DNA from: a virus
Lineage: Duplodnaviria; Caudoviricetes
IMG/VR virus record: IMGVR_UViG_3300028048_000086
Location: 32,001 to 96,000 of that record
DNA: 64,000 bases
Direction: 5' to 3' (one strand)
Positions within the stretch are counted from its first letter, which is position 1. Each line of letters begins with the position of its first letter. This document shows, in pieces, positions 3,001 to 50,046 of the stretch. The notes beneath the pieces are model-generated. The model saw nothing but the letters and a program-made list of their open reading frames with translations. It ran no database searches and was not told the DNA's origin. The translations under genes were made by a program, and so were the position numbers.

Positions 3001-6000
3001 CAAGAAATTCGCGTTAACATCGATATTTATCAGATCCATGATCTGATGCACTTCAGATATATTGAAAAACTGCTCAACGCCGTTATAAATAGCGGTCTTG
3101 ACTAAGTCAAAGCACTTTTTGGTGTCTCCACCGTTCTTTTTCGCTGCCAGATATTGATTGCGGATAGCGTTATTGCTACTCCACATATCTACGACGATTG
3201 GTTCAGTTTTTAGATACGTCTCTATTTCACTAGAGGCTTCTCTCGCGTTTTCCAGTTGATCATGAACCCAAGCGCCTTCCGTAATCTTTTCTTGCGTTGA
3301 TTGCTGGCTATCATCAGTTGAAGAATCATCTGTGGCTTGCTTGGTATCCTGTTGTTGGGTGTTAGATTCGGCACCTTGCTGAACAGCATTCTGAATTGCT
3401 CTTTTTCTCTCATTCGCTTCGTACGCTTTGATTTCTTTCGTGTAATTAGGTTCGAGAAACATCGCCTTTACATCATTGCTAATTTCCCATCCTTCATACT
3501 CTTCAACAGCATTATAATTGCTATCTTTCTTTAGATTCTCGAGCGTCTTCTTAGCGTTGACAGTGTATTTAGCATTTTCACTGTTCTTCGCCATCTTTTC
3601 CTGATTTTTGGCAGCATCATTCATCGCTACGGCTTCATAGCCTTTTTGTTCCTGAGCTGTGAGTTTGTATTTAGCTCCCGTGGAATCCTTATAAGTTTTC
3701 GTACCGTCAATGCCGGCTTCGATAGATTCCATAATCGTATCGCGAAGAATCTGACTAGAAAGGCGTGCTAAATATACGAAGTAAAAATCAGGATCAACGT
3801 AGACACGGTTGTCTTGGAACTTATATCTGAGATAGGAATACCCGAGGGAGTTCATATCCTCCAAAGTTGGAAGTTCCAAATCAGGATACAGTTCTGCGTG
3901 AGCAAGAGTATTTTCAACTTCGAAGAAAGACTTCAATGTCTTCTCTTCAAAGTTACTATCCTTACGATCTCCGTTATTCCTAGCTTGAAGCATGGCCGTA
4001 GCTTCTCTTTGACGAAGCGTACGATCCATGGAACGCATGGAGAACGAAATATTATAAACGCCTGGCTGGCCCGGAATCGTATCTATTTGGACATCTGTAA
4101 TTGATACTTCTGTCGTACCGAAGAATCTCGTAAATTCAGAATCGACTTTGATAGGATAGCATGGAATTACCTGACGATATTGACGCATCATCAATGCTGA
4201 TAGCTTCGGCAAATTGCTGATAATACCGGCTGCTTTTTTACTCGACGTCATAATGCTGACATTGAAAACTGTGTCTTCGCCGCCGAGATATTGCGGAGCA
4301 CATCCTTTTGAATCCTGAAGAGAAATTGGATGACCATTTGCAGATGACATGTGGTTCATGATCTGTGCTGAATAATCCGTTATGTAAAAGACTCCAGCAT
4401 CGATAGGAATAAACGACATATTGTCCAGCTGGTCAATATTCGCTACTTTTCTCCATTGACTATTGCCAGAGTCATTGCCTTTGATTGAGTTGTTGTCATA
4501 TTTGTCTTTTGCATATGACAACAACTTCATATCATCTGTATCAGCTATCGGAGTAAAACTAGTTCCGGATCCATCCGCCGCGATAGAAATGCGCATCGGT
4601 ATAAAGATACGGCCATCTTTGTAAGTAGCTCCTTCCGTGCCACCAATAAATGCCGTAGCATTTTTCTGTACATCTTTAATAGCGTCTTCCGTAAGCGCAT
4701 GACCATCATCGTCATTGAAAGCTACGCAAGCGCCAATTTCAAAATACTTGTTTTGGCTATCATATCTTTCATATCCGCGCACGTTAGCATCCGGACACTG
4801 TTCTTTAATCGATGCTTTTAACGTAGATAGAGCTTCATCTACTTCATCGTGAACATCGTTGCCATCTGCATCACGGAGATCTCGCCATGAAGACATTCCA
4901 TGGTCTAAAAACGTCGTGGCATTTGTGTTTGCTTGCGGAGAAACTGGAATATAGTGAATGCCTCTACCGTCGAGTTTCTTGATCGCATTCTGAAAATCGT
5001 CACTGTTAATTGCAGCCTCGATTCCCTTGGCATTCTTACCGATAGTATTCATCGCTTTCGCGCCATCTTCGGAGTAATTAATGCCAAGCTGCTGCTCCTG
5101 CATCTTTTCTCTCTTAGCTTTGAGCATCTTATCAAGATATACAGGGTCAGCGACGTAGAACTTCATAGTGCTGTCTTTAAGAGGCATTGGCTGAAGCATT
5201 GTACGGTTTTCGAGAGTCTTTTTGAGATAACCCTTCGAATTAATTTCCAGTCCAGAATTCAGCAAGGCGTTGCCATTAATCAGTGCTCTCTGATAATAGT
5301 AACGCATAACCGGCCAGTTGAATGCCGCCGAGAATCCATTTATTTTCTTTCCTGTTTGAAGCTTGAAGAGAGCACAATCAGGGATATAGACGGCATAATC
5401 AAATTCCGTCATTGTGAGAGTTGCTTCGATTAATTGTGGGCCATTCGACGACACATTCTTGATAGCGATGGAATTCATAACAACGGCTTCAATTCCAAGC
5501 GTATCATTCAAATAATCGTTTTCGATCGGCAGAAATGGCGTGAACTTAAATTCCGAAACGAGAGCGCGAAGGCCATCCATATAGTAGACCATCTTTTTCC
5601 CGTTCGGAGCCTGTGCTTTATATTCCCAACCATTGATACCTTTATCTCCGCAAAAATAAATATGCATGGAAATTTCGCGCTCGATATTGCGGCCGCCCTT
5701 CGCCATCGTGCCACGAGCGCGGAGCATAGAGACACGTTCTTCTGATGTATGCGTCGTAACAGAAATCGACGTAGGAGGAACTAAGAAAGTAACATCACCG
5801 ATTGTTACCGTCCAATTTGTCAGTTCTGCCCAGTCTTTGCCGAAGATAGATTCCTGGATTTTCTTGCGATCATCCAGCTCTGAAGCCATAGAAAAATAAG
5901 CGTCAGCAAAAACCTGCTGGTCAGGATCATATTCTGTTTTGAAAGCTTCATTATTTCCGATATTTGAGTTATCCGGCTGCGCATGCGTTTCCGTATCCGC

Positions 6001-7182
6001 GATAAGGGCTTTCGCTAAGTTTACGAACTTGCCATCAACTTTTACGAAGGCTTGCCCGGAAACTCTACCGAGGACATCTTCTTTCGCGAGGCACCAGCCA
6101 TTATTCGCGCCATAAAGATCATTTCCCGCCCAATTCTTTAGTGTGCTGATTGCTTTTTGATCATCGGCAATATACTGGAAATTGTTGATACCACCAATGC
6201 CGGTTTTATTATCAATCGTAACGTAAATCGGACCATGATCTTTGATGAGATTTTTTAGTCTCATCGACGCTTTTTCAGCATCTTCTTTACTGCCGTTAGC
6301 CGGGCATACGAGCCATTTGAATGAGATTTTCTCGTCAGAATCATTCGTCCGTTCAATCTGATACCAGCGTTCTCCAAGATGAACGAACTCTGCTGAATTT
6401 TCTCCGTCTAAGAACTCTTGCGTACAGGTATAAGAACTCGGATAATTCTTGGCATCTGTTGGCGAGAAAGACCGAATTTCTACCTGATCAGCGGGAATGT
6501 TCTTTTCAAAGGCATAGCGATCTGGGTACACGGCGTCAATACCGTATAAAGATAGCTGTATGCAATCAGAATCATCGAGCCCGCCGAAATTCGGATCATT
6601 TCCACTGACAGACTGGCGGAAAGTCTTCGCTGCGCCATCCGTCATCCCATTCGCATCAGAATGGAGTTCGCTGAGCCCGACACGTAGAACGTTACCATTT
6701 AGCCAATCACCTTCATAATCGTGAGATGAAGGTGTAGCGTAAAACATCGTAGACTGAGTCTTTTCATCGTAACCGAACTCTTTGCTTGGTGGATTTTCGG
6801 TATAGAATGCCGCTCTCTTTCCTTTTTCTTCGTCTCCAGGTTTGAAAGCATCGTCCGTCTTGTTTACCATATCATCGAGTTTTCGAAGATAAACATCGTC
6901 GACGGCGCCGAGATAAAAATCTCCCATTTCAGGAGTCTCAAAAGTATTTACCTGCGTAACATTTCCATTCTCGTCAGTAACTGTTTCGGAGAACGGATTA
7001 TAGTCTTGGCCTTCGTATCTCTTACGATATTCTGCGGCCTGCTTCGCTGCAGAAGCCAGATTTGCTTGTGCATTTGGATCCATCTTCTGAGCAACAGGAT
7101 TGCTCAGTCCAGGAGTCGCGGTAGCTACCTGCTGAACTTCTTCCATTGATGGCTTTTCAGTTGTGTTATTCTCGTCAGCCAA
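1..7182 (-). CDS. Giant virion structural protein (>2390 aa, runs off the left edge); degenerate SNase-like domain near the N-terminus, baseplate-hub-like region further on
   Basis: Absent from the ORF track because it has no stop in the window. TTG at 7182 follows a GGAGG RBS (MADENNTTEKPS...). Frame open wherever spot-checked (e.g. FNWPVMRYYYQRAL near 5300). LYGIDAVYP...DVLGRV...VDGKFVNL resembles SNase; RIHLRAGYGS...IFNGSIAEV...VAQGDG resembles hub proteins. Confidence 0.75.
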   Translation of the reverse strand, partial: MADENNTTEKPSMEEVQQVATATPGLSNPVAQKMDPNAQANLASAAKQAAEYRKRYEGQDYNPFSETVTDENGNVTQVNTFETPEMGDFYLGAVDDVYLRKLDDMVNKTDDAFKPGDEEKGKRAAFYTENPPSKEFGYDEKTQSTMFYATPSSHDYEGDWLNGNVLRVGLSELHSDANGMTDGAAKTFRQSVSGNDPNFGGLDDSDCIQLSLYGIDAVYPDRYAFEKNIPADQVEIRSFSPTDAKNYPSSYTCTQEFLDGENSAEFVHLGERWYQIERTNDSDEKISFKWLVCPANGSKEDAEKASMRLKNLIKDHGPIYVTIDNKTGIGGINNFQYIADDQKAISTLKNWAGNDLYGANNGWCLAKEDVLGRVSGQAFVKVDGKFVNLAKALIADTETHAQPDNSNIGNNEAFKTEYDPDQQVFADAYFSMASELDDRKKIQESIFGKDWAELTNWTVTIGDVTFLVPPTSISVTTHTSEERVSMLRARGTMAKGGRNIEREISMHIYFCGDKGINGWEYKAQAPNGKKMVYYMDGLRALVSEFKFTPFLPIENDYLNDTLGIEAVVMNSIAIKNVSSNGPQLIEATLTMTEFDYAVYIPDCALFKLQTGKKINGFSAAFNWPVMRYYYQRALINGNALLNSGLEINSKGYLKKTLENRTMLQPMPLKDSTMKFYVADPVYLDKMLKAKREKMQEQQLGINYSEDGAKAMNTIGKNAKGIEAAINSDDFQNAIKKLDGRGIHYIPVSPQANTNATTFLDHGMSSWRDLRDADGNDVHDEVDEALSTLKASIKEQCPDANVRGYERYDSQNKYFEIGACVAFNDDDGHALTEDAIKDVQKNATAFIGGTEGATYKDGRIFIPMRISIAADGSGTSFTPIADTDDMKLLSYAKDKYDNNSIKGNDSGNSQWRKVANIDQLDNMSFIPIDAGVFYITDYSAQIMNHMSSANGHPISLQDSKGCAPQYLGGEDTVFNVSIMTSSKKAAGIISNLPKLSALMMRQYRQVIPCYPIKVDSEFTRFFGTTEVSITDVQIDTIPGQPGVYNISFSMRSMDRTLRQREATAMLQARNNGDRKDSNFEEKTLKSFFEVENTLAHAELYPDLELPTLEDMNSLGYSYLRYKFQDNRVYVDPDFYFVYLARLSSQILRDTIMESIEAGIDGTKTYKDSTGAKYKLTAQEQKGYEAVAMNDAAKNQEKMAKNSENAKYTVNAKKTLENLKKDSNYNAVEEYEGWEISNDVKAMFLEPNYTKEIKAYEANERKRAIQNAVQQGAESNTQQQDTKQATDDSSTDDSQQSTQEKITEGAWVHDQLENAREASSEIETYLKTEPIVVDMWSSNNAIRNQYLAAKKNGGDTKKCFDLVKTAIYNGVEQFFNISEVHQIMDLINIDVNANFLKTVKDIVYSAACAATGEKEYSSKKKSTNWMASPGFVGYVPGTTRAETTMDEDLPDAGAFYATEFGCFKIKQYSRSEFMKMTGENPSDVWTEKEKNDDLTRINTNYYLLDRYYRYQPVDTIVAYKLACIRDPLFCTHAYLRNCLYWIKVLIDRHAIPTIKTDILRKASKAQQGVSNTEEANKLRVGEKEAQLVEHIKFFSRNTDTMDSGKIWTASVLASSDGNQMILDRIDNRDYRGLQEYSRGAAVPSSQISTGDKPTMALRKMTMAMTGLGHIDNKDTIGVSQNDPAVQHARNETEQLYIKAADDPKKFMVHSCHDMIVHDARGRMLRAFPTYYLIFVDEGRDVGSYKLHDNFYNSMNILKFTVVKDRKNPADTATITLTNYFQSYATEGIDRLRKSEASLGDTFDSVFFPGWHNHFAKDSSSYAEQQEKKRQNASPPDKLRLRAGARIHLRAGYGSNAVMLPIIFNGSIAEVTAEDTVEIVAQGDGVELMNPILEKKEAHSLTSSGGWLSNGETPKQIMNDILTTNGGAIATVLKNLPFGFDRPDILGDNPYGIYHFGNKDFSMASSADISGSGSSSKSSEPMQNIFEAWASPNWGDDNVTNVLGIDKAPSITFDVFGKTVWDIANICKSVMPDFICAVAPFDFRSTLFIGAPRFYYAYSYINSNGAILEKRKPFQQYHIYTSGSDIIANGITATSQKMKTVATGLYQVCATANTKEQHTVGPLYADYDIYPEDQKSMVVDTQLLGKGVPFVGAAGLNFFTSFETVDAIVGNDEDGALTGGHNMNNKSIAWRMTASALKDSMKEMYAGDMVLLGDPTIKPHDRMYISDEYEGISGQCTAKEVVHSMSVENGFTTTVSPDLICAVDDRFEQIIASWFNMTAGFATVHLLAVAKFASAMGLFGSSPVVDAASKLKQALYPERGLEAMKNLTAKSKMATKAVEMGGKAASAAGSAVKSANPIKYVDAGAKWAGKKAGERLAESAVGKIAAGFGARFLRNAI

Positions 7183-7285
7183 GTTTTCGTTCCTCCTAAA
7201 TACTGTCGTCACTTTATTGCTAACCGTATATTACGGTTTTGACGAGCCGATATGAATTTGTCTAACGGTTAGACTTTTTCAATTC

Positions 7286-7318: not shown

Positions 7319-10300
7319 TCAGCTCGACATCCCGATGGCATTCGACACCATACGATTAATATGATATTGGCTGGCAGTAGATCCAATCGTACTGCTCATC
7401 GTGATATTTACTGATCCATTCTGCGGCGTCATTCCGGAAGCGGCATTCTGAATAGCTTCTACGGCTTTTTGCTGTCCCTGCGGAGAAGTAGCGTTGACAT
7501 TGATGACGTAACCACTATTCGGGCCTCCACGCATGACATTCAAGTTCGCATCAGAGAGCGATGGAGCCTGCTGCATCTGTGCTACTTGGCTTTCATCAGA
7601 CTGACCACTTTGAGCTTGATCTGCCGGGCCATGATCCGATGTAGAATTCATCGGACCAGAAACATATCCGGAAGTAAGCAATCCGCCGGCGATGCCGATT
7701 GCTCCGGCGAGAATCGGATTTCCGACATGTTCTGTCATTCCGGCAATGCCTTTGATAGCCTTCGCCACTCTATGAGTAGAAGCTCTAACGGCAGCTTCTT
7801 CGATTTCTTCTCTGCGTTTTAAAGCATTGTCTGAATTCTGACGAATGACATCGGCAGCTTCTCTTGCTTTTTCTGTACGAATATCGGCGGCGCTACTACG
7901 ATTTTGAGGAGCTAGTGCATCTTCGTAGATTTTAGAATCAACCCCCATGCTTTTCGCTTGTTGATTGACCATTTCTTCTGTGCTCGTTATGAGCGATTCA
8001 GAAGATCCGCCTTCAATTTTGTACTGGTCATAATCTGGGTTGAGACCATTCTTGGAGATACCGACACGCATTGCCGCACGGAAATTAGCGCTGTTCGGAG
8101 AAGTCATTGTCTCTACAGCGTCATGAACGAGCTGGGCGCCCATCGCGGCTTTCATGCCATTCGTAATTTCTCCACGATTAACGGAAGCAATTTCTTCGGC
8201 GTTCGCGGCGGCATCCTGTCCAAGTTTCCAGAGATAGAAGTCTTTTGCTTTCTCATATATCGGCGTATCCTTATCGAGAACGTTGGACGGTAAACGAGCA
8301 AGTTCTTTTCCGGTACGAGTACTTAAGAGATTATAGTACATCTCGCGAGCTTCATTCGCGACATCACTGACTTCTTCGCCTCTACCGCGTCTATTCATAA
8401 CACCGTAGATACGGCTATTCAATTTCGACAGCTCTTCACTTCGAGTCAAATCACCATGTTTCTCACTCTTACCCGTTAAGGTAGCTTCCTGAATCGCGGC
8501 TACAGTTGTCGTCGCGAGATTTAAGTAACCATGCGTATCTCGATTGCCTTCGAGATTTGCCATGGTGCGCATCCATTCAAAGATCGAAGTATTCAAGCTG
8601 CCAGCTGCTAGTTTCGAAGCATCTGCCTCGATCTTCTGATTAATCAGAGCAGAAGTCTTCGCATAATGCATGGACTCCAGCAAATCTTTCTGCGTGTCTT
8701 CCGTATACTTTCCGCTCGTCCGTACATAGTCGCTCATCGCTCTTAAGTAATCTGTGGATCCTTTTTCAAGACCTTTTTCTTCGGCGATAGGCGCGAAAGC
8801 TTCATTTAGTTTTTCATTTAACTTGGAATATTTCTTTTCTTCTTCAGGAGTGTAGACTCTGTCGAAATCAACGGAATGGCGACCATCATACGTGGCATCC
8901 CGAACAGAGTGCGTATCAAGATCATCCATACGAGGAGAAGCATCGCGGCGATCATCAAACTGGTTGAACGTAGCTGCTGTATGGATCGTAGAACCGATGG
9001 CGTCGCGGAAAGCCTTTCCTCCGTCATCGAGCTCGACAGATACGCCTTCCATTTTCTTGAGAGCTTTGTATCCGGCATAGTCAAGAGAATCCGTGTGGAT
9101 TTTCTTTTCTCCGATATTAATCGTAGCTCCGGAACGAACGACGAGAGCGTCGCCTTTATCGGAGTCAAAGTCACCTTTCTTTTGCATCCAGCCCCTGACA
9201 CCGACAAGAAGCTCATCATCTCCGACTGTATCATTGACGTATAAAGCACTCGCGGCGATAGAAGTATTCTGCTGAGCTGGTTGACGAAGAATATCGGAAA
9301 GAGTACCCGTCGTTTTAACTTCTTCCAGCGTAGCCTTCTTCAACTTCGTAGCCAAATCGGCATTGCCGCCGGTCAGTTCCATGAAGTAGTCGTCGTTGTA
9401 AATAGCCTTCGCAGCATTGTTACCAACGACAGCGTAAGAAAAGTTTAAAGCCTTAGAAGCATCTTTTCTTCCAACATCTGCCATTTTCGACAGGTTGACA
9501 CCTTGCCATTCCAGCTGCGAGAAGTTGCCATCCAGAGAACGCCATTCTCCATTTTCGGTAACGCCGCCAGCGAAATCATGTCCCTGAGCAGTCGCACGAA
9601 TAACGCCATCTTGGAAGTAAGCATTCGACGCTTTCTTGACAACGCCATCTTTGCCTGTCGTCAGCTGCGAGACATGTCCGACAAACTGGTCAATACTTTC
9701 CTGAATTTTTCCGAGAGCTTTTTCACGAGCGCCTTTGACGTCAGCATTTTGCTCGTAGTTATCACTATAATCACGATATTGACGCAAGAGACTAGCAATG
9801 TCACCTGTAAGAATGCCAGGACTCAGTGTGCCATCTTCTCTTTCGAAGATATCTTTCGTAAACGGAAGAGCTAAGTAGCGATTGCTTCTCTTGCCGTAGA
9901 TCTGAGCCTCTTCAGGAAGTTTGTCATCATGAAGATCGATCAGAAGAGGTCTGCCATAGAGCTGATTCGTAAACTCTTCCATACCAGAAGCTCTTGCCTG
10001 AGTATTCAAGTCTTTCAATGAAACGACATTGAATCCGAACTTCTGCATGTCATCGACGGTCAGAGTATTCTTTTTCTGATTAAACTTGCGAGCGACGGAG
10101 AAAGAAAACGCCATATTTTGCGCCAAGACTTTATCAGCCGTGATCTTTGTTGCGCCGGCTTTTTTCATGGTGCCAATGACAGAATCAATCTGTTCTCCTG
10201 TCATGCCTTCGTCAACTAACCTTTGGCGAGCTTTCTGAGACTCTTCTGTCAGCTGTTTATACTGAGGAGCAAATTCTTCTTTGCGTTCTTCCAGCGTCTT

Positions 10301-13300
10301 ATCATAGATACGATCTTCTCCATCCGTATAGAACTGATGAGCTTTAATCGTATCAACCAGAGATTGATCGATATTATCTCCGGCTTTTGTGCCTTTGACA
10401 AATCTCTCGTATAGTTCGTTACCTTTTTCTTCTCCGAGAGAATGAACAAGGCGTTGCTGAATCGTATTTACATAGTCTTCGTTGATTCTATTCGCGAAGA
10501 CGTTTGTCATAATACGCTCGTCAAGTTTCTCAGGCTTCTTGTTCTGACGAGCTGTATCCTTCGTCGTAATACGAAGCATATCTAGATTCTGGAGCTGCCC
10601 GCCACGAGACAATGCCGTATTCGAATATAGATATCTCTGACCGTATTTCTTGGCTTCTTCGTCATTCAGCCTCTGAACTTTTTCGAAAGAGTGAATCTCT
10701 CTTGCGTAGTCGTCTTTTCCTAAGAGCTCGTCTACGGTTTTTCCAGTACTAACTTCCTTTCCTTCCATATCGAATTTGCGATAATATCCGTTATCTAATT
10801 GCTCGATATAGCCGGTGACTTTCTTGCCGCCCTTTGATAGCTCGAAATACTTTTCAGGGCCTTCGCTCTTAAAGTATTTGTGAGCTATCTCATCGTACGC
10901 ATCCCAATCAATAGAACCGTGAGATAACGTAAACGTACCGGTTTTTTCATCAAGTTCAAGATCTGGGCGAACCTTCTTCATTTCACGAAGAATCTCTTGG
11001 TTCGACATGCCACGATCTTTCATAGCATAAAACATGCTTGAAAATGCGGTAGGATCTCCGTGCTTGATCTGTCCGGAGTAGTTGTTCATGACGCCCCAGA
11101 TATGCTGTCCTTCTTGCAGGGCACCGCTGGCCGTCATAACACGTTCGAGCAAGTCTGTCGCTCCATGCCGCTCCGTCATCATGGCATTCGCGAATTCTTC
11201 TATGCTGGAGAATGTTTTTCCAATCGTTTCCCGGATTCTCTTATCGTTCCAGCCACCATCAGTCATCGCATTGAGAGCGATACCGAACTTCGTCTTCGAG
11301 AGATCCTTCGGTGGATTCATCAGTTCCGTAATAAAGTCTGCCGTAACTTCTCTGCCAATTAGGTTCGTTGCCTTAAATTCCGTAAGGACTTTAGCGACTT
11401 TCCGATCTTTCTGCCCGAGACCGTTCATGATAACACGGCCCATCGTCTTCTCGTTATTATCCGAGACTTTGATGTTACCGGACATGTCCATGTCTTCGAG
11501 GAAGTAACGTGCTTTATATGTGTTGTTCGAATTGAAGAGATTCCAGACTCTTTCCTGCCAGCCTTCGCGGCTCGTATCAATCTTATCGAGATTCTCATTG
11601 ATGATTTCGCTGACTCGTTCATCCGACAGGCGCATACGATCCTGGAAGATTCCGAGGCGCAAGAATCCATTTGATTTTGCTAGAACAGGTTTTTCGCCTT
11701 CGTCGTAAGCGCCGAGAACGCTGAACAACTTTTCATCTTTTTTACGGAAGACACCGTTGTTAGAATGGAAATGAACGTTGCCTTCGCTATCAAGTTCGAG
11801 TTCCGGAGTAGCATCGCCGAGATTCGAGCGTTTCATAACAACGTCACGAGCATTGCTTTCAACGGCACGAACTTTATCGACATCTACCTGTTGCTCGTAA
11901 TAGCGATAGGATAGCATCGCATCAGCTGCACGAGAAGTAATTGCGCCAGCGCCTTCATCCGTCATAATTGAGGAAATGCGAGTAAATTCAGCGCTTTCTC
12001 TCGCTGATAGAGATAGAGCTAGAGCATTCGCGCCTTTATCGACGAGAATTTGAAAATCTCTCGTACTCGTAGAAAGACGCCTGCCGATAAACGAGTTTTC
12101 TACTTTATAGCCAATGCTTTTGCCAATTTCTTCGTTACGAGCAGACTCACCGACGGTGCGAATAAGATCTCCGGCCATGCCACCGATTGAATCAAGATAT
12201 TTCAGAGTATCTTCTGAAGCCCTGAAATAAGAAGCTCTCGCTTTCTTGTATTCGATGCCATTCGCACCAACATGGGCATTCTCACCGACATTCTGATTCT
12301 CTTGATAGATACGGTAGAAGCCCTTCGAAGAATGCGTTCCTAGATGACGAGTAAATCCGCGAATCTTGGAATAAACATCGGCATTCGGGCTGCCGTTATT
12401 AATAACTTCCTGTATTGCGTCTTCGAAGAGAGAACCGTGCTCTTGAATAGCAACGACCTGTGCCATCGTAAGATCGCTCAGACGTTTGCCGTCATAAAGC
12501 TCTGTTCCGTCTTTCATGTAAGCTTCATGGGATTTATCCATGAGCTCTTTCAGGATATTATCAGTATCTGAGCCAGTACCTTCGAATTCTTGGAAAGCCT
12601 TGGTATTTGAAAGTTCTCCCAGCTTCTGTACAATATCTCCTGCATAGAAAGATTGCGAAGTCAGGCGATCCTGCTTATTCTTGTCCAAGCTCGTAGAGAA
12701 ATCTCTCCACGTAGCGTTGAACTTGCTGAGAATATAATTGACACCGCCAAGAAGTTCGTTCTCGCCAGCTTTCCTTTCAAGAAAGTCTGTATGGAGAGAG
12801 GCCCCGACATTTCCGGCGGCCTTGCCCCATAATGAATTAACTTGGAGCTTCTTTTCACGGCTTCCTCTGTCGTAGAGGTTAAATAAACCGATAGGGTCTA
12901 CGCGACGAGTATTATTCTTGCCTTGGCGAATAAAGAACGCCCCGTCTTCATAGCGCTCCTTGGTGAAGAATAGCTCTTGAGACTTGCCAGCTTTAAAATC
13001 ATTGATACTGTTGTAGCCCCAGATTTTGCCAGTTTCTTCGTTGTAGCCGATGGCGCCGCCATTTTCATAGATTCCACGAACAAGATCGTGGACGACTTCG
13101 CGAGTATTTGCTCTCTTGATCTGTTGTCCTCTCTGCATGAGTTCAGCGCTCTCTTTCGAGTAGCCCTGAGCCATGAGATTCTTTACGAAGTCCTCGGAAT
13201 CTTCATGAGCGAACCCTGTATTGAATAGAATCTTATCTACGATATTATCGGCGATTTTATTCGTCGCGTTCTCGAATTTCTGCTTCGCAAGTTTCGGATT

Positions 13301-16300
13301 ATCTTTACTATACGAGAATGGGATGATTCCTAGCTTGTTTTTGCCGATACGATCAAGAGTCTCTTCAATCGTTTTCTTCGAGAGTCCTTGGTTTTTCTCC
13401 TTCGAATTTACGACATCATAAGTGCCGATAGGAGACAAGAAGCCTTTCGTCGGGTCTTTCTCACGAGCTTGTTCGAAGCCATGGAGAATCTTGCTCGTGG
13501 CAATATCCGTACTATCATTTGCCAAATCAACGGCATAGTCTTTATCTTCTTCAATGACATGCTTATCAACGAGAAACTTCTGGAAATCGCCGAGAATCTT
13601 GACTTGATTTTCCGGCGTGAAACTCTGAATCTGACGATCGTCGTAGCCCATCTCTTTTAAGAGAGTAGTGGCCATGCCCCATTCGCCACCATGAAGCTTA
13701 AAGGCTTTGATTCTACCTTCCGGAGCTTTGATGCCATTGAATCCGTTAAGATCAACTTCGAAGATATTCTCCATTTCGGAGGCAACACGATATCCTCTGC
13801 GCCACCCAATCGGAGCATTATTCAGTTTTGATAGCTTCGTTACACCTTCATTTGCCTGAAGAACTGCTTGTTCTTGAAGAGCTTGACGAGCATAGCGATA
13901 GTAAATCTTGAAGCTCTTGTCGCGAGTATTGTCTGTGCCGGACTGCTTCTTAGCGAAATCGAGTGCAGCCTGAATCAGACCGAAGTTACGACGGCCATAA
14001 TCTTCTAGCTGTGTCATGTTACTCGCAGTGTTCGAGTACATGTGCATGATGCCGTCGGATTCCCAACCGAAATATTTATAGAGAGTATCCTCAAAAGACT
14101 TCGCCGAAGGTTTATATTTCGGATTATTCGCGATTTCCGTCGCCGTACGTATCGTGCGATCCATCATCTCTTGAGTATATTTGCGACGATATACTTCAAG
14201 ATCAGAACCGGCGGCAGCTACCATATGAGGAGTATCTTCTGGCAGCCCCTGAATCGGACCATAGACTTTCGGGATTTCCTCATCCATATCGGAGATATAA
14301 CGAAGCAACCCGGCGTCTTTCGTGGCGTCGAGTTCTCTCGCTGCTCTAGCGGCCGCATCGTTATCAAACGCCAGCGTGCTTTGAGCTTTTAAGCCCTCAG
14401 CCGTAGGATCGATAATTTCGACTTTTCCCTTGGAATCTGTAGAGTAAAGTCGAAGAGCATTTCTCTCTTCTTTTTTCAAGTCATTAATAACATATTCGCC
14501 ATTCTCGTTGATATGGCCAGCGTATGACATATGACTCAGGCTGAGTCCGATATTATGCGGAGTACCGAATTTCCAAACATCGCTATTGGCGCCAATGGTT
14601 TCAGAATCAGAATATGGAGTTAAATGGATAAAATCTAGAGAACCGAAATCTAATTCAGGATGTGCTTCTATGATGGATTGATATAGTGGATTATCTCTAT
14701 CAATCCTGCCATTGCCCTGAAGAATGTAAAGACCGCGACGACGCTCGCCAGTTTGCTGGAAAAGTTCTTCTTTCGCTCCAGTTCCCGTGATAGAGACAGC
14801 ATCCGATGTACGGATAGTGCCATTCATTGGATCTCCGACGAATGTCAAAATGCCATCTTGGCGATAGCCAGAACGATTTGCGTAAAATACTTCCGTGCCA
14901 TTTGCGCTAAGTCGATCGGCGTCTTTCGGCAACTGATTGATAAGCGAATTCGGGTCATTCGGATTGAATAATCCAGTTCTATAAACCAGCGTCGCTGTTC
15001 CGATGGCGTCTTCTTTCGCGTTATGGGCACCGTTCTGAACTTTCGAGCCATTGATAAGTTCGAAAGCGTGAAGAAGAGCTTCCTGTGTCAGAGGCGTCTT
15101 GCCGGCTTCGCGCATCCATTTCATTTGCTGCGGAAGGAGGTCTTCGTGTCCTTTAAAAAGGTTCCGATAAAATTCAGAGCTATTTCCGACAGCTGCTCTT
15201 TCGACATGGAGATCGTCGAAAACATGATTGAACTTAATAGCGGAGCCGCCGAAGAGCTGATTGACTTCTTCTTTAGCTTTGTCGCTCATATAAGGCGACG
15301 TAGCAAAATAGCTTAAGTTGCGAATATCGAAGACTTCGGTGTTGTGGCCAATTGCTGTTAAGTCATTATCTACGATTGTATGAAGACCGGAAAGAAGTTC
15401 TTTTTCCCATCCACGAACACCGTCAACAGCCGTAGCTTCCTGCTGACGATAGATATCCGTATAAAGTTTGAGACCTTTTTCGACTTCTTCCTTCGAAAAA
15501 CGTATGTCTTCCTGCTCCGCGAAATTATCGAACGTGAAGATGCCTTCACTTGCTCTAGAAGTATTTAATTTCGTCTTCTCATTTCCAGCAAGAGCGAGAC
15601 GGTTCAGCGTAACCTTTTCATCGTTCGTGATTTCCTGACCGGAAAAATAGCGGCGCGAAATATCTTCGATACGCTTCCGCATATCATCGTTGATACCGAT
15701 GATAGAGCCATAAGTATGCTTGATTCCCGTAGAAGCATCGAAAGCGTTATTGGCGATGTCTCCTTGAACATGAGAGAAAGAAAACTCCGTGATGAACTGG
15801 CCTAGTTTTCTTCCGCCCTCATCGTAAGTAGCGCCAAGAGTTTCCAGATCCCATAAGACACTTTCACCGTTATGCTTCAAGATATTAGCGATACCTTGAT
15901 AAGCGGTCGCCGGTGTTTGTGCGACGTTATTCAAGATCCTCTGATAGAAGAGTCTCGGCGTCTGGTTCTTCGGTGATGTTACTGCTTCGATAAATGTATC
16001 TGGCGTGAGCTTCCCGTAAGCATTCTTGACAACTTGAGAAATCAGAGCTTTATCTGAGCTAGTAAGAGCCTGAATAGGTACTCCGATATGGCCGCCTTCA
16101 CCATATTTCGAGACAGTCTGAATTCTACCGGTAAAAATAGGCGCAATACGAGTGGAGAGAGCGTCAGAATCCATCTTGCGCAGATAATCATCAATGAGAG
16201 CGTTCTTTTCTTCCGCGCTCAAACTGTCAATATCATTGACTTCTCTCGTTACTTGCTGGTGTACTCTCCTATTTTTCTCTCTAATCTCTGCTTGTCCACG

Positions 16301-16339
16301 GACGTACGCAGCTACGCTGTCTCCTTCGTATATGCTCAT
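7319..16339 (-). CDS. 3006-aa candidate virion-packaged single-chain RNA polymerase with N-terminal DEDDh exonuclease domain
   Basis: Exonuclease: VLWDLETLG / IGHNTEVFDI / AHNAKED. Beta-like: MTDEGAGAIT and GNIKVSDNNEKTMG. Beta'-like: ILRQPAQ...KGDFDSD (DxDxD near 9158-9172). Located among tail genes. Confidence 0.7.
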   Translation of the reverse strand: MSIYEGDSVAAYVRGQAEIREKNRRVHQQVTREVNDIDSLSAEEKNALIDDYLRKMDSDALSTRIAPIFTGRIQTVSKYGEGGHIGVPIQALTSSDKALISQVVKNAYGKLTPDTFIEAVTSPKNQTPRLFYQRILNNVAQTPATAYQGIANILKHNGESVLWDLETLGATYDEGGRKLGQFITEFSFSHVQGDIANNAFDASTGIKHTYGSIIGINDDMRKRIEDISRRYFSGQEITNDEKVTLNRLALAGNEKTKLNTSRASEGIFTFDNFAEQEDIRFSKEEVEKGLKLYTDIYRQQEATAVDGVRGWEKELLSGLHTIVDNDLTAIGHNTEVFDIRNLSYFATSPYMSDKAKEEVNQLFGGSAIKFNHVFDDLHVERAAVGNSSEFYRNLFKGHEDLLPQQMKWMREAGKTPLTQEALLHAFELINGSKVQNGAHNAKEDAIGTATLVYRTGLFNPNDPNSLINQLPKDADRLSANGTEVFYANRSGYRQDGILTFVGDPMNGTIRTSDAVSITGTGAKEELFQQTGERRRGLYILQGNGRIDRDNPLYQSIIEAHPELDFGSLDFIHLTPYSDSETIGANSDVWKFGTPHNIGLSLSHMSYAGHINENGEYVINDLKKEERNALRLYSTDSKGKVEIIDPTAEGLKAQSTLAFDNDAAARAARELDATKDAGLLRYISDMDEEIPKVYGPIQGLPEDTPHMVAAAGSDLEVYRRKYTQEMMDRTIRTATEIANNPKYKPSAKSFEDTLYKYFGWESDGIMHMYSNTASNMTQLEDYGRRNFGLIQAALDFAKKQSGTDNTRDKSFKIYYRYARQALQEQAVLQANEGVTKLSKLNNAPIGWRRGYRVASEMENIFEVDLNGFNGIKAPEGRIKAFKLHGGEWGMATTLLKEMGYDDRQIQSFTPENQVKILGDFQKFLVDKHVIEEDKDYAVDLANDSTDIATSKILHGFEQAREKDPTKGFLSPIGTYDVVNSKEKNQGLSKKTIEETLDRIGKNKLGIIPFSYSKDNPKLAKQKFENATNKIADNIVDKILFNTGFAHEDSEDFVKNLMAQGYSKESAELMQRGQQIKRANTREVVHDLVRGIYENGGAIGYNEETGKIWGYNSINDFKAGKSQELFFTKERYEDGAFFIRQGKNNTRRVDPIGLFNLYDRGSREKKLQVNSLWGKAAGNVGASLHTDFLERKAGENELLGGVNYILSKFNATWRDFSTSLDKNKQDRLTSQSFYAGDIVQKLGELSNTKAFQEFEGTGSDTDNILKELMDKSHEAYMKDGTELYDGKRLSDLTMAQVVAIQEHGSLFEDAIQEVINNGSPNADVYSKIRGFTRHLGTHSSKGFYRIYQENQNVGENAHVGANGIEYKKARASYFRASEDTLKYLDSIGGMAGDLIRTVGESARNEEIGKSIGYKVENSFIGRRLSTSTRDFQILVDKGANALALSLSARESAEFTRISSIMTDEGAGAITSRAADAMLSYRYYEQQVDVDKVRAVESNARDVVMKRSNLGDATPELELDSEGNVHFHSNNGVFRKKDEKLFSVLGAYDEGEKPVLAKSNGFLRLGIFQDRMRLSDERVSEIINENLDKIDTSREGWQERVWNLFNSNNTYKARYFLEDMDMSGNIKVSDNNEKTMGRVIMNGLGQKDRKVAKVLTEFKATNLIGREVTADFITELMNPPKDLSKTKFGIALNAMTDGGWNDKRIRETIGKTFSSIEEFANAMMTERHGATDLLERVMTASGALQEGQHIWGVMNNYSGQIKHGDPTAFSSMFYAMKDRGMSNQEILREMKKVRPDLELDEKTGTFTLSHGSIDWDAYDEIAHKYFKSEGPEKYFELSKGGKKVTGYIEQLDNGYYRKFDMEGKEVSTGKTVDELLGKDDYAREIHSFEKVQRLNDEEAKKYGQRYLYSNTALSRGGQLQNLDMLRITTKDTARQNKKPEKLDERIMTNVFANRINEDYVNTIQQRLVHSLGEEKGNELYERFVKGTKAGDNIDQSLVDTIKAHQFYTDGEDRIYDKTLEERKEEFAPQYKQLTEESQKARQRLVDEGMTGEQIDSVIGTMKKAGATKITADKVLAQNMAFSFSVARKFNQKKNTLTVDDMQKFGFNVVSLKDLNTQARASGMEEFTNQLYGRPLLIDLHDDKLPEEAQIYGKRSNRYLALPFTKDIFEREDGTLSPGILTGDIASLLRQYRDYSDNYEQNADVKGAREKALGKIQESIDQFVGHVSQLTTGKDGVVKKASNAYFQDGVIRATAQGHDFAGGVTENGEWRSLDGNFSQLEWQGVNLSKMADVGRKDASKALNFSYAVVGNNAAKAIYNDDYFMELTGGNADLATKLKKATLEEVKTTGTLSDILRQPAQQNTSIAASALYVNDTVGDDELLVGVRGWMQKKGDFDSDKGDALVVRSGATINIGEKKIHTDSLDYAGYKALKKMEGVSVELDDGGKAFRDAIGSTIHTAATFNQFDDRRDASPRMDDLDTHSVRDATYDGRHSVDFDRVYTPEEEKKYSKLNEKLNEAFAPIAEEKGLEKGSTDYLRAMSDYVRTSGKYTEDTQKDLLESMHYAKTSALINQKIEADASKLAAGSLNTSIFEWMRTMANLEGNRDTHGYLNLATTTVAAIQEATLTGKSEKHGDLTRSEELSKLNSRIYGVMNRRGRGEEVSDVANEAREMYYNLLSTRTGKELARLPSNVLDKDTPIYEKAKDFYLWKLGQDAAANAEEIASVNRGEITNGMKAAMGAQLVHDAVETMTSPNSANFRAAMRVGISKNGLNPDYDQYKIEGGSSESLITSTEEMVNQQAKSMGVDSKIYEDALAPQNRSSAADIRTEKAREAADVIRQNSDNALKRREEIEEAAVRASTHRVAKAIKGIAGMTEHVGNPILAGAIGIAGGLLTSGYVSGPMNSTSDHGPADQAQSGQSDESQVAQMQQAPSLSDANLNVMRGGPNSGYVINVNATSPQGQQKAVEAIQNAASGMTPQNGSVNITMSSTIGSTASQYHINRMVSNAIGMSS

Positions 16340-16420
16340 GGAATAAACTCCTTATCTATATAAATGAAAAAGTCTAACCGTTACACTTTTTCGAAATGAC
16401 TTCTACTACGTAGATTACCC

Positions 16421-16459: not shown

Positions 16460-19400
16460 TTAATTCGCTTGCATCTGAAGACTTTGATTAACACGTTCCT
16501 GGACATCTTTCATTCCGAGCATCGTCTTAATCGATGCTTTTATCGAAGTAGCTCCGCCGGATTGGCCGGCCTCGACGGAGATATCAACGTTCTTCAAGCC
16601 TTGTCCTTTTAGTATCTTTTCGATACGGTTTTTGACGGTCGTAGAATTATGATCTTGCTTATGTATATCCTGAATCCGAGGAGCATTCGCTACTTCCGGT
16701 TTATCCAGCTCAGATTCATAGAATCCGAAATCGCCTAATTGCAGTCCTTGATTCACAACACTCTGGACTTCAGAATTCTTCAGGTCATACTGCGGAGCCC
16801 ATCCAGCCCAGTTTTCCTGTGGAAGAGCATGCTTCTTGAAATATGTTTCGTTATCTACTTGCTTATCTTCTTTCATGCCCCAAGCCATTTTGAGGGCCCG
16901 ATTCAAGAACGGAGATACTTTATTCAGGATTTCCTCTCGACGAGATTTATTACGCTCCTTGACAAATTCCATGAAATACTCGCGGTCTGTCTGCGGAAGT
17001 GCCGTGATAATCTGTGACCACGTAGCATCTTCTTTTAAGCCGTACATCGTATTTTCTGCCGCTTGCTTATAAAGCAGGGCAGTACGTGTCCATTTACCAC
17101 CTGGAACAACGAGTTTTTCTCCTTCGAGGTCGTTGATACGGCTCGTGAGCATACTCGTCAGACGATCTCTTTCTTCACTTTCAGGAGCAGAACGAACAAG
17201 ATCTTTTTTAAGAGACTGGAAGTGTTTAATCGCGAGACGATTCTGTTTGGTCGCTTCTTCTCGACGTTCGATGACATCTTCGATATCGACGTCTTCTTCA
17301 TCTTTCGCTTTTTTGGCGGCTTTCTTGTAGAGCCCCATGAACTTGAGATATGTCAGGCGATCATAGTAATCCTGCATCTCCCATTTCTTTTTCGTTCTTT
17401 GAGGTACCCATTCGCCGTTTGGATTCGTAGCCGTACGATATAATGCGCCTACGGCAGCACCTATCAAAGCACCCTTGCCTCGGCTCTTCTTAAAGAAACG
17501 AGCAACTTCTTGCCCGACATTCGCCGCAGAAAGTGTTTCATCGGCGTAACTATTGCCTCCTGTAAGAGCGTGGCCTAACGTAGAAATCGCACTTCCATGA
17601 CGAGCCCATTCCATGGCTTTCTTGGAGTTACCGAGATACAGTAGCTGAGATAAAGCCGCTCCGATAAATGCACCTCGATCAGAAAGAAGATAAGCCGCTC
17701 CGATTCCGTGACGCATGCCAGGAGATAACCCTTCAATTTCTTCTGAAATACGATAAGCTCCACCGATCAATCCCGTAAAAGCTGAGCGATCATGGAAAGA
17801 ACGCTCCAATGCAGGACGCAAGAACGTCTCAATTGGATGAGACCAAGTCTGATAAGGAGTGCCGTAAACTTGCTCTGCTTCATAAGATTCTAGCGGAGAA
17901 CGAACTCTCAAGAACTGGTCAGAGATCCACGGGAGATCCAGGTGAGCGATAAATTCAGAAGCGTAGGCTACACCTTTTTGAACGACGCCCATATCGCCAA
18001 GAACTGCCGGGGTGCTATTATCGCTTTTACGAATCGCGGCATCGCCGGCGGAAATCATCTGCTTTCCGACATTTTGTCCGTCGATGTAAACAGCTGCGTT
18101 GATACTACCGATAGAATCATTGTTCGTCTGATTATCCGAATCTTCGTCAACGGCAACAGTAACTGTTTGACCAACGTGAATATATCTACCGAGAACATCC
18201 TTCATGGATTCATTCGGATTTCCTCGGACACTCGCACCGGCAATCTTGAAGATAGAGTTGCCACTACGGAACTTGCCGTATCCAAGAACTTCAGAAACGA
18301 CGACATTCTTATACTGTAATCCGTGTCCTACGACTTTATAATCGTAGAAATCATGTTGCTTGCCTTGCTGGTTAACTCTCTGACGAATCTCGCTCATCTC
18401 ATCGATGAGTTCAGGATCCGTAACAGTCTTCTTAGCGATGTCTCTCCACATCTTATATTCAGGAGAAAAAGGAGCGATATCCGCTAGAATTTTCATTCTA
18501 TCAAAAGCACCGTATTTTCCTCCGAATTGATCAGGGTGCAGTTGATTCAGACTTTCGTATCCTTTACCAGGTAAACGCATTTCTCCTTTCGGCACGGCCG
18601 TAAACGGATCACCATAGCGGAAACGATCTGGGAGCCAATCAGGCATCTCATTCATGAGAGGATTGATACGAGTATTACGTCGATAATCAGGAATAAAACG
18701 ACGCATGATTTCTGCGGCTGGGCCGCCGAGACCGCCGAGATTCTCATCCCAAAAAGTACGGCTAAATGAAGTGATGTCTTGTCCCGTCGCGATACGTTTC
18801 TTATTATCGACACCGAACCCGGTAGCCTCGCCGACACCATAACCGTAAATACCAGCTATTAAGCGCCAAGAAACTGCCGCATTCTGAACGAACGAAGAAC
18901 CTTTACCTTGATTAATCAGATCCGTAACAGTATCAGGATCATTTAATAAGTTCATGGCGTCGACTGGACGATAGTTTTTGAGTTTCAGCCCCTGAGCCAT
19001 TCCTTCTTCCGCATCGATTTCGTCCTGAGACATCGTGCGAACGTTCTTTCCGGCCTTCGCTTTCGTAGCATCATTCATTTGACGAAGCCAATTTGCCGGA
19101 TTATGATCTCTCAGTATATTTTCGAGGTCTTCTTTAATACCGAGAGTATCGCCTTTCGTTAAACGATTAATCTCTAGACGATCTGCGTCATATAGATGTC
19201 GAGCATTTTTATTTACCGGTTGCCCATCTTTATCAGCGACGTAAGAATCTTTCCCGTCAGCTTTCTGAACGACGTAATTCTGTTGGTTCGGGACTGGGCC
19301 TCCGAAAACAGCGTAATCAATCGCTTCTTTCCAACCGATATGATTATTCTGGTTAACCGTTTCAAGAGCATCAGCAGCTGATTTTCCTCCCGTGAGAGAA

Positions 19401-50000: not shown

Positions 50001-50046
50001 AGATTTTCTTCAACTTCGCCTGCTCTACGGGCGACAATCTAGCCAT
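47008..50046 (-). CDS. terL: Terminase large subunit, intein-containing
   Basis: Extein Walker A GRR|CGKS, Walker B LFLDEID, SSTPTG coupling motif, nuclease IGIDW and HFVDA. Confidence 0.93.
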   Translation of the reverse strand: MARLSPVEQAKLKKIFADPVLWAKAFVRTYDAGTKKHGPWTARSYQEEMLRDFSLRKVYRLGRRCVPGWVNIFDPITGELSTAKELFEKEKPFGVVSLNDEYQATAKQNSIINENGEREVLRVTLESGKVIDATADHPLLTAFGWKNIEELNVGDSVGTPLALNFFGNQEIDDNDAKFLAYMIGDGNCTRKTIRFTQAPGKQLEEMKQIVSQYGCELHHYECSGNPYDYSIRKKEHRLSKTYKNEAKELLIKYGVFGHGADDKFIPKEIFKSSRRQIALFISRLFSTDGWACSSGKKTRTEIGYCSNSERLIRELAHLLLRFGIRTHIRKKKKAWILCICDRISFMIFKEEIGIYGKEEAVSKCFDIITQGKEQDLFMPKEINPVIQEEISRKGLKLTNLVKLWPSDPLNERLRLKSYKLQKWKARILSKYLGLREIVKLCDGDIEWDPVKSIEHLGKFMTYSVMVPENNNFVVNDIYTHNCGKSETMIIEGLWRAMTAPKGRNYRVLYVTPYENQVNLLFMRMRELIAESPLLKNEITRIKSSPYTVEFKNGSTILGFTTGASSGQGAASVRGQRADWLFLDEIDYMGTNDYSTVAMIAGERPDIGMTCSSTPTGKRGVFYQMCTDKRPNGMGYSEHYHPSMDNPNWSQQLEDQYRAELTASQYDHEILAIFGTEEAGVFDKNKLDEAMHQVYYTYAPLTDTQKRNLNGQQPPIEIMYDEENLAPYNPFRCIGIDWDAYQAGSSLLVLDFDVHRKKFMVMKRIEVPRSEYSLDKAVQMTVKLNQIYRPSWIFCDRGYGDYQLERLHIYGDQHPESGLKSKVIGYQFKQTLDILDPITRRKTKEPMKQFMVNQLKLNFERGRIILSPFDEVLHKQLVDYEVDHISQAGVPVYTSKNEHFVDALGLAHLAFVLKFPDLTGAIKTMKTETRIQQVHVDPLNRQANAVLRDLDNSINPWKNTTRVKQIGKDPGELPGDYQKWVHVPLTSGGGRSYHSSWGSRSGGRNSGGGRTMW
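48604..49854 (-). mobile_element. Intein (417 aa) with LAGLIDADG endonuclease, inserted in the terminase Walker A
   Basis: Starts CVPGW, block B ATADHPLL, FLAYMIGDG / FISRLFSTDG, ends YTHN followed by C; AT-rich. Confidence 0.92.

Follow-up and report, generated by a model that had tools for sequence, protein, structure and literature searches.

Introduction

What does a phage do with a protein of 3006 amino acids (aa) that is encoded in the middle of its tail genes? This question is raised by P0001, a gene in a 64,000-nucleotide stretch of DNA from a tailed virus (Duplodnaviria; Caudoviricetes; IMG/VR virus record IMGVR_UViG_3300028048_000086). This stretch, referred to here as the window, corresponds to bases 32001–96000 of a 117,973-base viral record that is about 46% complete, and the uncultivated phage is therefore a jumbo phage. 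Near-identical DNA was found in animal-gut metagenomes from 12 studies, mostly labelled as bovine, and no RNA run was listed among the datasets that contain the stretch. An earlier note, made from the sequence alone, had described the product of the gene as a single-chain RNA polymerase fused to a DEDDh exonuclease. Our analysis favors, with a probability of roughly 0.6, a protein of this kind that is ejected from the virion: a virion RNA polymerase that is associated with the tail, is linked to an exonuclease, and is encoded in the tape-measure slot of a 0305phi8-36/ME3-like jumbo myovirus of the ruminant gut. In other words, the phage probably brings along its own enzyme for transcription when it infects the host. 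The analysis shows the folds of the two domains (as models), their intact and conserved catalytic residues, the position of the gene and the absence of cysteine.

P0001 spans positions 7319–16339 on the minus strand, as do all of its parts listed below; it begins with ATG and its 3006 codons include none for cysteine. The listing of open reading frames (ORFs) and a motif scan placed the gene, and every motif named by the earlier note, within a few bases of where that note had put them.

A two-barrel RNA polymerase core

Ruprich-Robert and Thuriaux described eight invariant residues in two-barrel RNA polymerases, namely three aspartates, the two residues of an R-x-P motif, two basic residues and one acidic residue (PMC2919709), and all eight have conserved counterparts in P0001. 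The β-like barrel region (aa ~1450–1640; 11420–11992), delimited by conservation, motif order and alignment end-points, contains the motif TDEG (starting at aa 1460; 11951–11962), with the acidic residue E1462, and the paired-lysine stretch GNIKVSDNNEKTMG (starting at aa 1621; 11438–11479), with K1624 and K1631. The β′-like barrel (aa ~2228–2420; 9080–9658), delimited by Foldseek, VIA and motifs, contains GKDG, with the switch-2-like K2230, followed by LRQP (starting at aa 2351; 9278–9289), with R2352 and P2354, and by GDFDSD (starting at aa 2389; 9158–9175), with D2390, D2392 and D2394.

When the products of E. coli rpoB and rpoC were compared with P0001, five collinear correspondences were found, in β-then-β′ order and with similar spacing. 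The β motifs NFEDS and GDK...GNKG correspond to TDEG and GNIK...EKT, and the β′ motifs GKQG, NRAP and DFDGD correspond to GKDG, LRQP and DFDSD, respectively. E1462, K1624 and K1631 match the order and spacing of ED813/814, K1065 and K1073 of E. coli β. The acidic residue is located 162 residues before the first lysine (142 in Rpb2), the two lysines are 7 residues apart (8 in β), and R2352 is located 38 residues before D2390 (35 in E. coli β′), the usual distance of RxP to DxDxD being about 35–45 residues.

The region from aa 1430 to aa 2620 (1191 residues) was modeled with AlphaFold, with a predicted local distance difference test score (pLDDT) of 80.9 and a predicted template modeling score (pTM) of 0.79. 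Against the PDB, Foldseek returned 183 matches at E ≤ 1e-3, the top 50 of which were all bacterial β′ subunits (best E 3.9e-5). A VIA-wide search of 48,161 representative PDB chains, which did not rely on Foldseek, gave two-barrel RNA polymerases at all ranks from 1 to 11 (Z 7.3–8.9); these were QDE-1, Pol I, Mtb β′, P74 gp62, and the vaccinia, Pol II, archaeal, AR9, Pol IV and phiKZ enzymes. Neurospora QDE-1 reached a Z of 8.9 with 270 residues aligned, over a part of its chain (690–1114) that spans both barrels. Lower-ranked matches included RDR2 (Z 7.2) and P23-45 gp96 (Z 6.1–6.3, 220–225 residues aligned), and only five chains reached Z ≥ 8. The case for a polymerase fold in this model rests on the uniformity of these matches, together with their agreement with the motifs.

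The alignments also indicate how the core is laid out. Chains that contain only β′ begin to align at model residues 620–810, which pair with β′ residues 1–340, and model residue 801 (K2230) maps to β′ residue 334. Single-chain polymerases (QDE-1, P74 gp62, RDR2 and gp96) align rigidly, as judged from end-points only, from model residues 1–31 (aa 1430–1460, at the TDEG site) to residue 1191. DFDSD, the predicted metal-binding motif, is located in a barrel loop, between a helix and a strand. Between the barrels, a long region (aa ~1641–2220; 9680–11419) includes a segment of low model confidence (aa ~1825–1920), and its last ~170–190 residues, where β′ chains start to align (model residues 620–663), match the N-terminal clamp part of β′. 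Long helices after the second barrel (aa ~2498–2619; 8483–8848) align with β′ up to about residue 931, which would correspond, based on end-points only, to the bridge helix and the start of the trigger loop. Overall, the layout resembles a β::β′ fusion with a clamp-like part more than the compact design of QDE-1 or of gp66 from phage phi14:2 of the crAss-like group.

These results agree with the two-barrel call of the earlier note, both in the order of the motifs (a β-like acid and lysine pair, then β′-like GKxG, RxP and DFDxD) and in the structural matches. Concerning the double-psi barrels expected around these motifs, the β′-like barrel was recovered by Foldseek and VIA, and the β-like barrel was tentatively placed using conserved residues and alignment end-points. 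Another position for the β-like barrel (aa ~2150–2260, with a TxKxG motif and a short connector, as in QDE-1) was considered and rejected: this stretch aligns with β′ residues 334–345, the switch-2 GKQG motif and the first half of the β′ barrel, and the single-chain polymerases start to align at aa ~1430–1460. Taken together, the model and the motifs support the assignment of aa ~1450–2620 as a single-chain two-barrel RNA polymerase core, with predicted activity.

Switch 2 has been linked to DNA templates and is reported to be absent from RNA-dependent enzymes (PMC2919709). Given the eight invariant residues and the presence of K2230 at the switch-2 place, we read the core as that of a DNA-dependent RNA polymerase. 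P0001 might instead be an enzyme similar to QDE-1 and other RNA-dependent RNA polymerases, RNA-templated or template-independent, and used in host takeover or counter-defense; QDE-1 was the best structural match (Z 8.9–9.1) and RDR2 was matched as well. Bacterial β′ chains, however, reached Z 8.3–8.8, and since these values are less than 1 apart from those of QDE-1 (identity 9–13% throughout), the two are tied. Foldseek, moreover, placed β′ first, and the switch-2-like lysine of GKxG and the β′-clamp-like N-terminal part are both present. An RNA-templated or template-independent enzyme is thus quite improbable.

Conservation of the catalytic residues

A word-indexed search identified nine relatives of P0001 (27–97% identity; all 2883–3082 aa). 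A family profile covering aa 1430–2620 was then used in a HMMER search of 1.84 billion representative proteins and matched 63 clusters at 50% identity, nearly all of 2600–3800 aa and matched in a corresponding part of the chain; only giants with the architecture of P0001, and fragments, were retrieved. All family members come from metagenomes, where their contigs reach 355 kb, and none has been given a functional name, the single recorded name being 'hypothetical protein'. Almost every full-length member contains both the exonuclease and the polymerase domain.

To determine conservation, 62 relatives from metagenomes, each at least 2400 aa long, were aligned to family hidden Markov models (HMMs). 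Identity to P0001 drops to about 19% in the polymerase region, where the mean column identity is 17% (45-sequence alignment). K1624, K1631, P2354, D2390, D2392 and D2394 were nonetheless present in all 62 proteins, R2352 in 60 (lysine in the other two), K2230 of GKxG in 59, and E1462 in 53, with aspartate in six others. Among the exonuclease residues, D164, E166, D338 and D444 were each kept in 61 of the 62 relatives and H439 in 60; overall, the residues of ExoI (DxE), ExoII (NxxxFD, including N333) and ExoIII (HxAxxD) were retained in 59–61. The maintenance of catalytic residues at about 19% identity indicates strong selection on these residues.

DFDSD is the only DxDxD motif in the 3006 aa of P0001, and about 1.1 would be expected by chance from the length and aspartate content of the protein. 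The motif alone therefore proves nothing, and its weight comes from its conservation in relatives. The earlier note had pointed out that a G-to-S change in this motif leaves all three aspartates in place, and had named a lack of conservation of DxDxD in homologs as evidence that would speak against it; all three aspartates were found in every relative. Position 2393 is occupied by serine in 40 proteins, glycine in 17, alanine in three and threonine in two, so the change is a family trait, and the canonical DFDGD is present in relatives.

These counts bear on whether P0001 could be a structural tape measure or ejection protein with inactive, relic enzyme-like domains, as might be suggested by its tape-measure slot, its great length and the lack of any family recognized by sequence. 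Relics would be expected to lose their catalytic residues; however, 11 catalytic positions are invariant or nearly so in 62 proteins whose identity goes down to about 19% in the polymerase region. Since both domains also fold with high confidence, we consider this explanation very improbable.

The exonuclease domain

The N-terminal domain (aa ~130–498; 14846–15952) was delimited by an AlphaFold model, by VIA and by a family HMM match (aa 130–498). It contains ExoI WDLET (starting at aa 163; 15839–15853), with D164 and E166, ExoII GHNTEVFD (starting at aa 331; 15326–15349), with N333 and D338, and ExoIII AHNAKED (starting at aa 438; 15008–15028), which is of the 'h' type and includes H439 and D444. 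The model (aa 120–500), which was built with 28 family sequences, had a pLDDT of 90.7. All of its top Foldseek matches were DEDD nucleases, with weak scores (E about 6e-3) because a helical insert of ~110 residues between ExoI and ExoII spoils the global fit. Realignment with VIA gave Z values of 10.4–11.6 over 165–197 residues for Pol III epsilon (171/176 residues), a Cas2-linked DnaQ domain, TREX1/2, the exonuclease domain of PolC, the N-terminal domain of DinG, and ExoI; the alignments covered epsilon, TREX2 and the PolC domain almost completely.

Thus, the domain has the fold and the ExoI, ExoII and ExoIII (HxAxxD) residues of DnaQ-like DEDDh exonucleases (epsilon, PolC exonuclease domain, DinG, TREX1/2 and RNase T). 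It differs from them in the ~110-residue insert and in its sequence, for which no match was found in Pfam or PDB sequence searches; identity to DnaQ-type proteins (epsilon, PolC) was 17–21%. Based on its modeled fold and its active site, this domain is a DEDDh 3′–5′ exonuclease, as had been proposed, with predicted activity. Its nearest structural kin are DNA proofreaders, and a proofreading role would be a guess.

This kinship raises the possibility of a two-barrel DNA polymerase or primase-polymerase similar to archaeal PolD, whose DnaQ-type exonuclease would proofread DNA, in which case P0001 would be a replication or repair enzyme. In addition to an exonuclease closest to the proofreaders epsilon and PolC, such an enzyme might account for Lys2388, which takes the place of Asn458 in the NADFDGD motif of E. 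coli β′, a residue that presumably senses ribose. PolD itself belongs to the two-barrel superfamily and works with a 3′–5′ exonuclease partner (PMC10770324, PMC7281927). However, R2352 is the counterpart of Rpb1-R446, which adjoins the ribose of the incoming nucleoside triphosphate (PMC2919709), and is kept in 60 of the 62 relatives. Moreover, the gene belongs to the late tail operon and is not located among replication genes, and a separate primase is encoded in the record. RNA polymerases occupy ranks 1–11 of the structural search and PolD is not in its top 50 rows, an absence that does not exclude kinship. Overall, we find a PolD-like enzyme improbable.

Between the exonuclease and the polymerase, the middle region (aa ~499–1440, ~940 residues; 12020–14845) contains conserved columns across the family. 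It gave no match in Pfam or PHROGs, and the ESM Atlas returned nothing usable for aa 520–1430, nor for aa 2114–2620 in the polymerase. In a tblastn search against 50,697 phage records, the whole protein was unmatched and the β′-like part had only a chance-level match.

Gene position and virion association

The structural module of the window is collinear with that of Acinetobacter phage ME3: genes for terminase, portal, capsid, sheath, tube-like and chaperone-like proteins are followed by three giant genes. The placement of P0001 in a tail gene cluster was confirmed: upstream are the genes for the tail sheath and for tube-like and chaperone-like proteins, and downstream is a hub-like gene that includes a lysin domain. 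The upstream neighbor (16460–23032, minus strand) encodes a cysteine-free protein of 2190 aa, an orthologue of gp145, a virion structural protein of Bacillus phage 0305phi8-36 (tblastn E 9e-60). The downstream neighbor (1–7212, minus strand), which encodes 2840 aa in the full record, is an orthologue of the baseplate hub gp147 (tblastn E 5e-74; PHROG 20474) with a lysin-like domain. No paralogy was detected among the three giant proteins. In 0305phi8-36, gp145 and gp147 are the neighbors of gp146, a 'hypothetical tape measure protein' of 2537 aa that was found in virions by mass spectrometry (PMC2147016). P0001 is flanked by orthologues of two proteins that were also detected in 0305phi8-36 virions by mass spectrometry, and the same order of three giants is found in five related loci.

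This slot, which follows the genes for tail chaperones and precedes that for the baseplate hub, is the tape-measure position. The earlier note had remarked that P0001 could be mislabelled as a tape measure protein. Mislabelling is too simple a description, because synteny identifies the position as a true tape-measure slot and the protein may serve both roles, as does P23-45 gp96.

The C-terminal end of P0001 contains its sole strongly hydrophobic segment, which is Gly-rich and conserved in the family (aa 2875–2894; 7658–7717), followed by a conserved C-terminal domain (aa ~2925–3006; 7322–7567) with a weak collinear likeness to the C-terminus of gp146. In their last ~150 residues, both proteins have a hydrophobic segment rich in Gly/Ala, which is followed by a polar linker and then by a GY-x-[IV]-N-[IV] block. 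With a domain score of 9.4 bits and a high compositional bias, this resemblance is suggestive, and may serve as a lead only. Family profiles gave no significant match when searched against the whole ME3 genome, gp146 and gp147. A YLDIETTGL sequence in gp146 was considered as a possible ExoI motif and discarded, as it was unsupported by the exonuclease profile and about 0.4 such motifs are expected by chance (residue-frequency estimate).

Avoidance of cysteine may mark chains that cross an oxidizing compartment unfolded. From the cysteine content of the other ORFs in the record (0.89%), about 27 cysteines would be expected in P0001, and there are none; 54 of the 62 family members are likewise cysteine-free. 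Cysteine is also absent from the gp145-like neighbor and from ME3 gp35 and gp36, and the hub-like giant has 22. The putative 'virion' location in the earlier proposal gains independent support from the gene position between gp145 and gp147 orthologues, the absence of cysteine and the C-terminal membrane-like segment.

P0001 could also be an active but unpackaged polymerase-exonuclease that serves in middle or late transcription, or in RNA processing, and is merely encoded among the tail genes. Packaging is a prediction, and P23-45 and phiKZ-like phages also possess non-virion two-barrel polymerases (PMC10770324, PMC7598289). An unpackaged enzyme would, however, have to be reconciled with a gene order, between two virion-protein orthologues, that is kept in five related loci, ME3 and 0305phi8-36. 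It would also have to be reconciled with the lack of cysteine common to P0001 and its gp145-like virion neighbor, and with the C-terminal hydrophobic segment common to P0001 and the virion protein gp146. We judge it unlikely, to the same degree as the PolD-like enzyme, and retain a virion-associated polymerase as the preferred reading.

Several sequence features lie next to the gene. A ribosome-binding site (AAGGAG; 16348–16353, minus strand) was recognized by reading the sequence 8 nt 5′ of the ATG, and the hairpin and T-run terminator of the preceding gene stands 5′ of P0001. A near-perfect palindrome, AAAGT[C/G]TAAC[C/G]GTTAGAC, was observed ~30–45 nt 5′ of the start of P0001 (16369–16389) and again 5′ of the hub gene (7260–7277), each copy directly after a hairpin and T-run terminator. 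Only two copies were present in the 118-kb record (0.02 expected), and the palindrome was absent from the five related loci; it may represent a late promoter or operator. The polymerase and hub genes of one relative (234 kb) are separated by an inserted IS200/IS605 element (Y1 transposase and OrfB/TnpB-like gene; L001:19449–20961).

Comparison with known systems

The tape-measure protein gp96 of Thermus phage P23-45 contains a virion two-barrel RNA polymerase, which is active and is responsible for transcription of the pre-early genes (PMC10770324; PDB 8H2N/8H2M). Like P0001, it is a giant tail-gene product in the tape-measure position, with a single-chain two-barrel polymerase, a DFDxD motif and a membrane segment. 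Nevertheless, no sequence similarity was detected among PDB sequences with phmmer or a profile, the structural match being limited to Z 6.1–6.3. The polymerase of gp96 is N-terminal, flat and clamp-less, whereas that of P0001 is located in the C-terminal half and has a β′-clamp-like part; gp96, a siphovirus protein, lacks an exonuclease, whereas P0001 has one and belongs to a contractile-tailed phage.

Similarly, phi14:2 gp66 (bioRxiv 10.1101/2020.03.07.982082; PDB 6VR4) is a large two-barrel enzyme made of a single chain; it is packaged, its DFDxD is non-canonical, and its gene lies beside those of giant virion proteins. P0001 would resemble it if packaged. It differs by its barrel connector (~140 residues, versus ~720 between the barrels of P0001) and its lack of an exonuclease, and it belongs to a podovirus. 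No homology to gp66 was detected by phmmer or profile in PDB sequences, or by the profile search of 1.84 billion proteins. The structure 6VR4 was not in the top 50 structural rows either, which is an absence only and not evidence against kinship. Thus, the comparison with gp66, QDE-1 and RpoB/RpoC that the earlier note had recommended gave QDE-1 and β′ as best matches, and by no sequence test any kinship with the crAss enzyme. QDE-1 and bacterial β/β′, which share all eight active-site residues and the β-then-β′ order with P0001, differ from it in that most accessory domains are absent or replaced and in that the P0001 core is one chain inside a 3006-aa protein.

By analogy, P0001 would work like gp96. 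It belongs to a family that is described in none of the papers found and is distinct from the gp96 and crAss gp66 families, because of the lack of a sequence relation, the different domain order, the clamp-like part and the added exonuclease.

Among phages with the same gene order, 0305phi8-36 gp146 and ME3 gp36 occupy the same slot between gp145-like and hub genes. In gp146, a C-terminal hydrophobic segment is also followed by a small domain, but the protein has no DxDxD and is unmatched by family profiles; 0305phi8-36 encodes a separate YonO-like polymerase, orf99 (PMC2147016). ME3 gp36 (ME3_36; KU935715, 33172–37983; L020:18173–22984) is a cysteine-free 'hypothetical protein' of 1603 aa. 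It was matched by the polymerase model in BFVD (E 3.1e-6) and has REP followed, after ~40 residues, by DHDQD; no DEDDh motifs were found in it. ME3_36 is probably an unannotated polymerase in a cultured isolate. Another top BFVD match of the polymerase model was annotated as 'minor tail protein'.

Points that weigh against a virion polymerase

The following points argue against a virion RNA polymerase with a linked exonuclease or limit the evidence for it. Z values of 8–9 are 'middling' according to the tool, and modest for a 1191-residue query. The β-like barrel was assigned from conserved residues and alignment end-points, and not from a separate fold, and the ~720 residues between the barrels (K1631 to R2352) far exceed the ~140 of QDE-1 or gp66. 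Neither domain was recognized in Pfam, PHROGs or PDB sequence searches, whether the single protein or family profiles were used, and sequence does not allow an RNA polymerase to be told apart from DNA polymerases or primases that share its fold. Concerning the tail, about 1550 residues (>1500) are globular in the models, unlike a classical helical tape measure, and homology to gp146 is limited to position and the weak C-terminal likeness. Any further part of the transcription program lies outside the record, which covers only about 46% of the genome. Finally, packaging and enzymatic activity are predictions for every member of the family.

Proposed mode of action

From the observations above, we infer how P0001 is packaged and ejected, which template it uses, when it acts and what its nuclease does. 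P0001 would be made late, together with the tail genes, and the cysteine-free chain would be held in or beside the tail lumen. After contraction of the sheath, it would be ejected through the tube, ahead of the DNA or with it, and the C-terminal segment may anchor it at the envelope. There, the polymerase would transcribe the first-entering early or pre-early genes independently of the host RNA polymerase, and the linked exonuclease might act on a 3′ end in the same step. The pairing of exonuclease and polymerase in nearly every full-length member suggests that both act in the same early step; as a best guess, the exonuclease would trim a 3′ end, of DNA or RNA, either where the genome enters or on the transcript being made.

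A more specific proposal is that the two domains act on the same 3′ end, by proofreading or resolving backtracked complexes, or that P0001 is a counterpart of PolD delivered with its proofreader by a contractile tail. We regard this proposal as doubtful. If true for the same 3′ end, no earlier two-barrel polymerase would have had a DnaQ-type nuclease covalently attached to it for proofreading or for resolving backtracked complexes.

Other features of the record

No match to PF04997 (the Rpb1 N-terminal family) was obtained in this record, and Pfam scans of other large ORFs found no second polymerase; these searches covered about 46% of the genome. Outside the window, an archaeo-eukaryotic-type primase was identified (DNA_primase_S and PriCT_1; L024:9536–10603, record positions 107535–108602), as well as a protein of 1066 aa with RCC1-like and Laminin_G_3 domains (L024:15357–18557).

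Three other genes on the minus strand of the window were noted. The large terminase (47008–50046; 1012 aa) contains an intein (Intein_splicing, aa 81–481, E 5e-19) with a LAGLIDADG homing endonuclease (LAGLIDADG_3, E 9e-17), after which the terminase N-terminal domain continues from aa 482. Within the tail genes, an ORF of 293 aa (28388–29269) had a weak LAGLIDADG_3 match (E 2.8e-4), below the Pfam cut-off, and a weak LAGLIDADG match was also observed in the gp145-like gene of relative L005. The tail sheath gene (30018–32954) is unusually long (978 aa), and only its last ~270 residues match sheath families.

Significance

To our knowledge, experiments have demonstrated the delivery of two-barrel RNA polymerases by virions only for crAss-like phages, for phiKZ/AR9-like phages, where they are multisubunit, and for one Thermus siphovirus lineage. 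A full-text literature search found no paper on an exonuclease fused to a two-barrel polymerase, and none that places a polymerase in this tail slot in 0305phi8-36/ME3-like phages. In a text search, the supplementary files of PMC10770324 contained neither 'Acinetobacter' nor 'DFDSD', and in a survey, the sole polymerase given for 0305phi8-36 is YonO-like, with no enzyme listed in the tail slot (PMC7824862).

The pairing of a DEDDh exonuclease with a polymerase has no described counterpart among two-barrel polymerases and raises the question of which 3′ end the nuclease trims. Experiments could possibly start from the cultured phage ME3, whose protein in this slot is similar in structure. If the proposed function is correct, the family would add a large and widespread group of jumbo contractile-tailed phages (63 clusters) to the carriers of virion RNA polymerases, and genes labelled 'tape measure', 'minor tail protein' or 'hypothetical' would hide the enzyme that starts infection.

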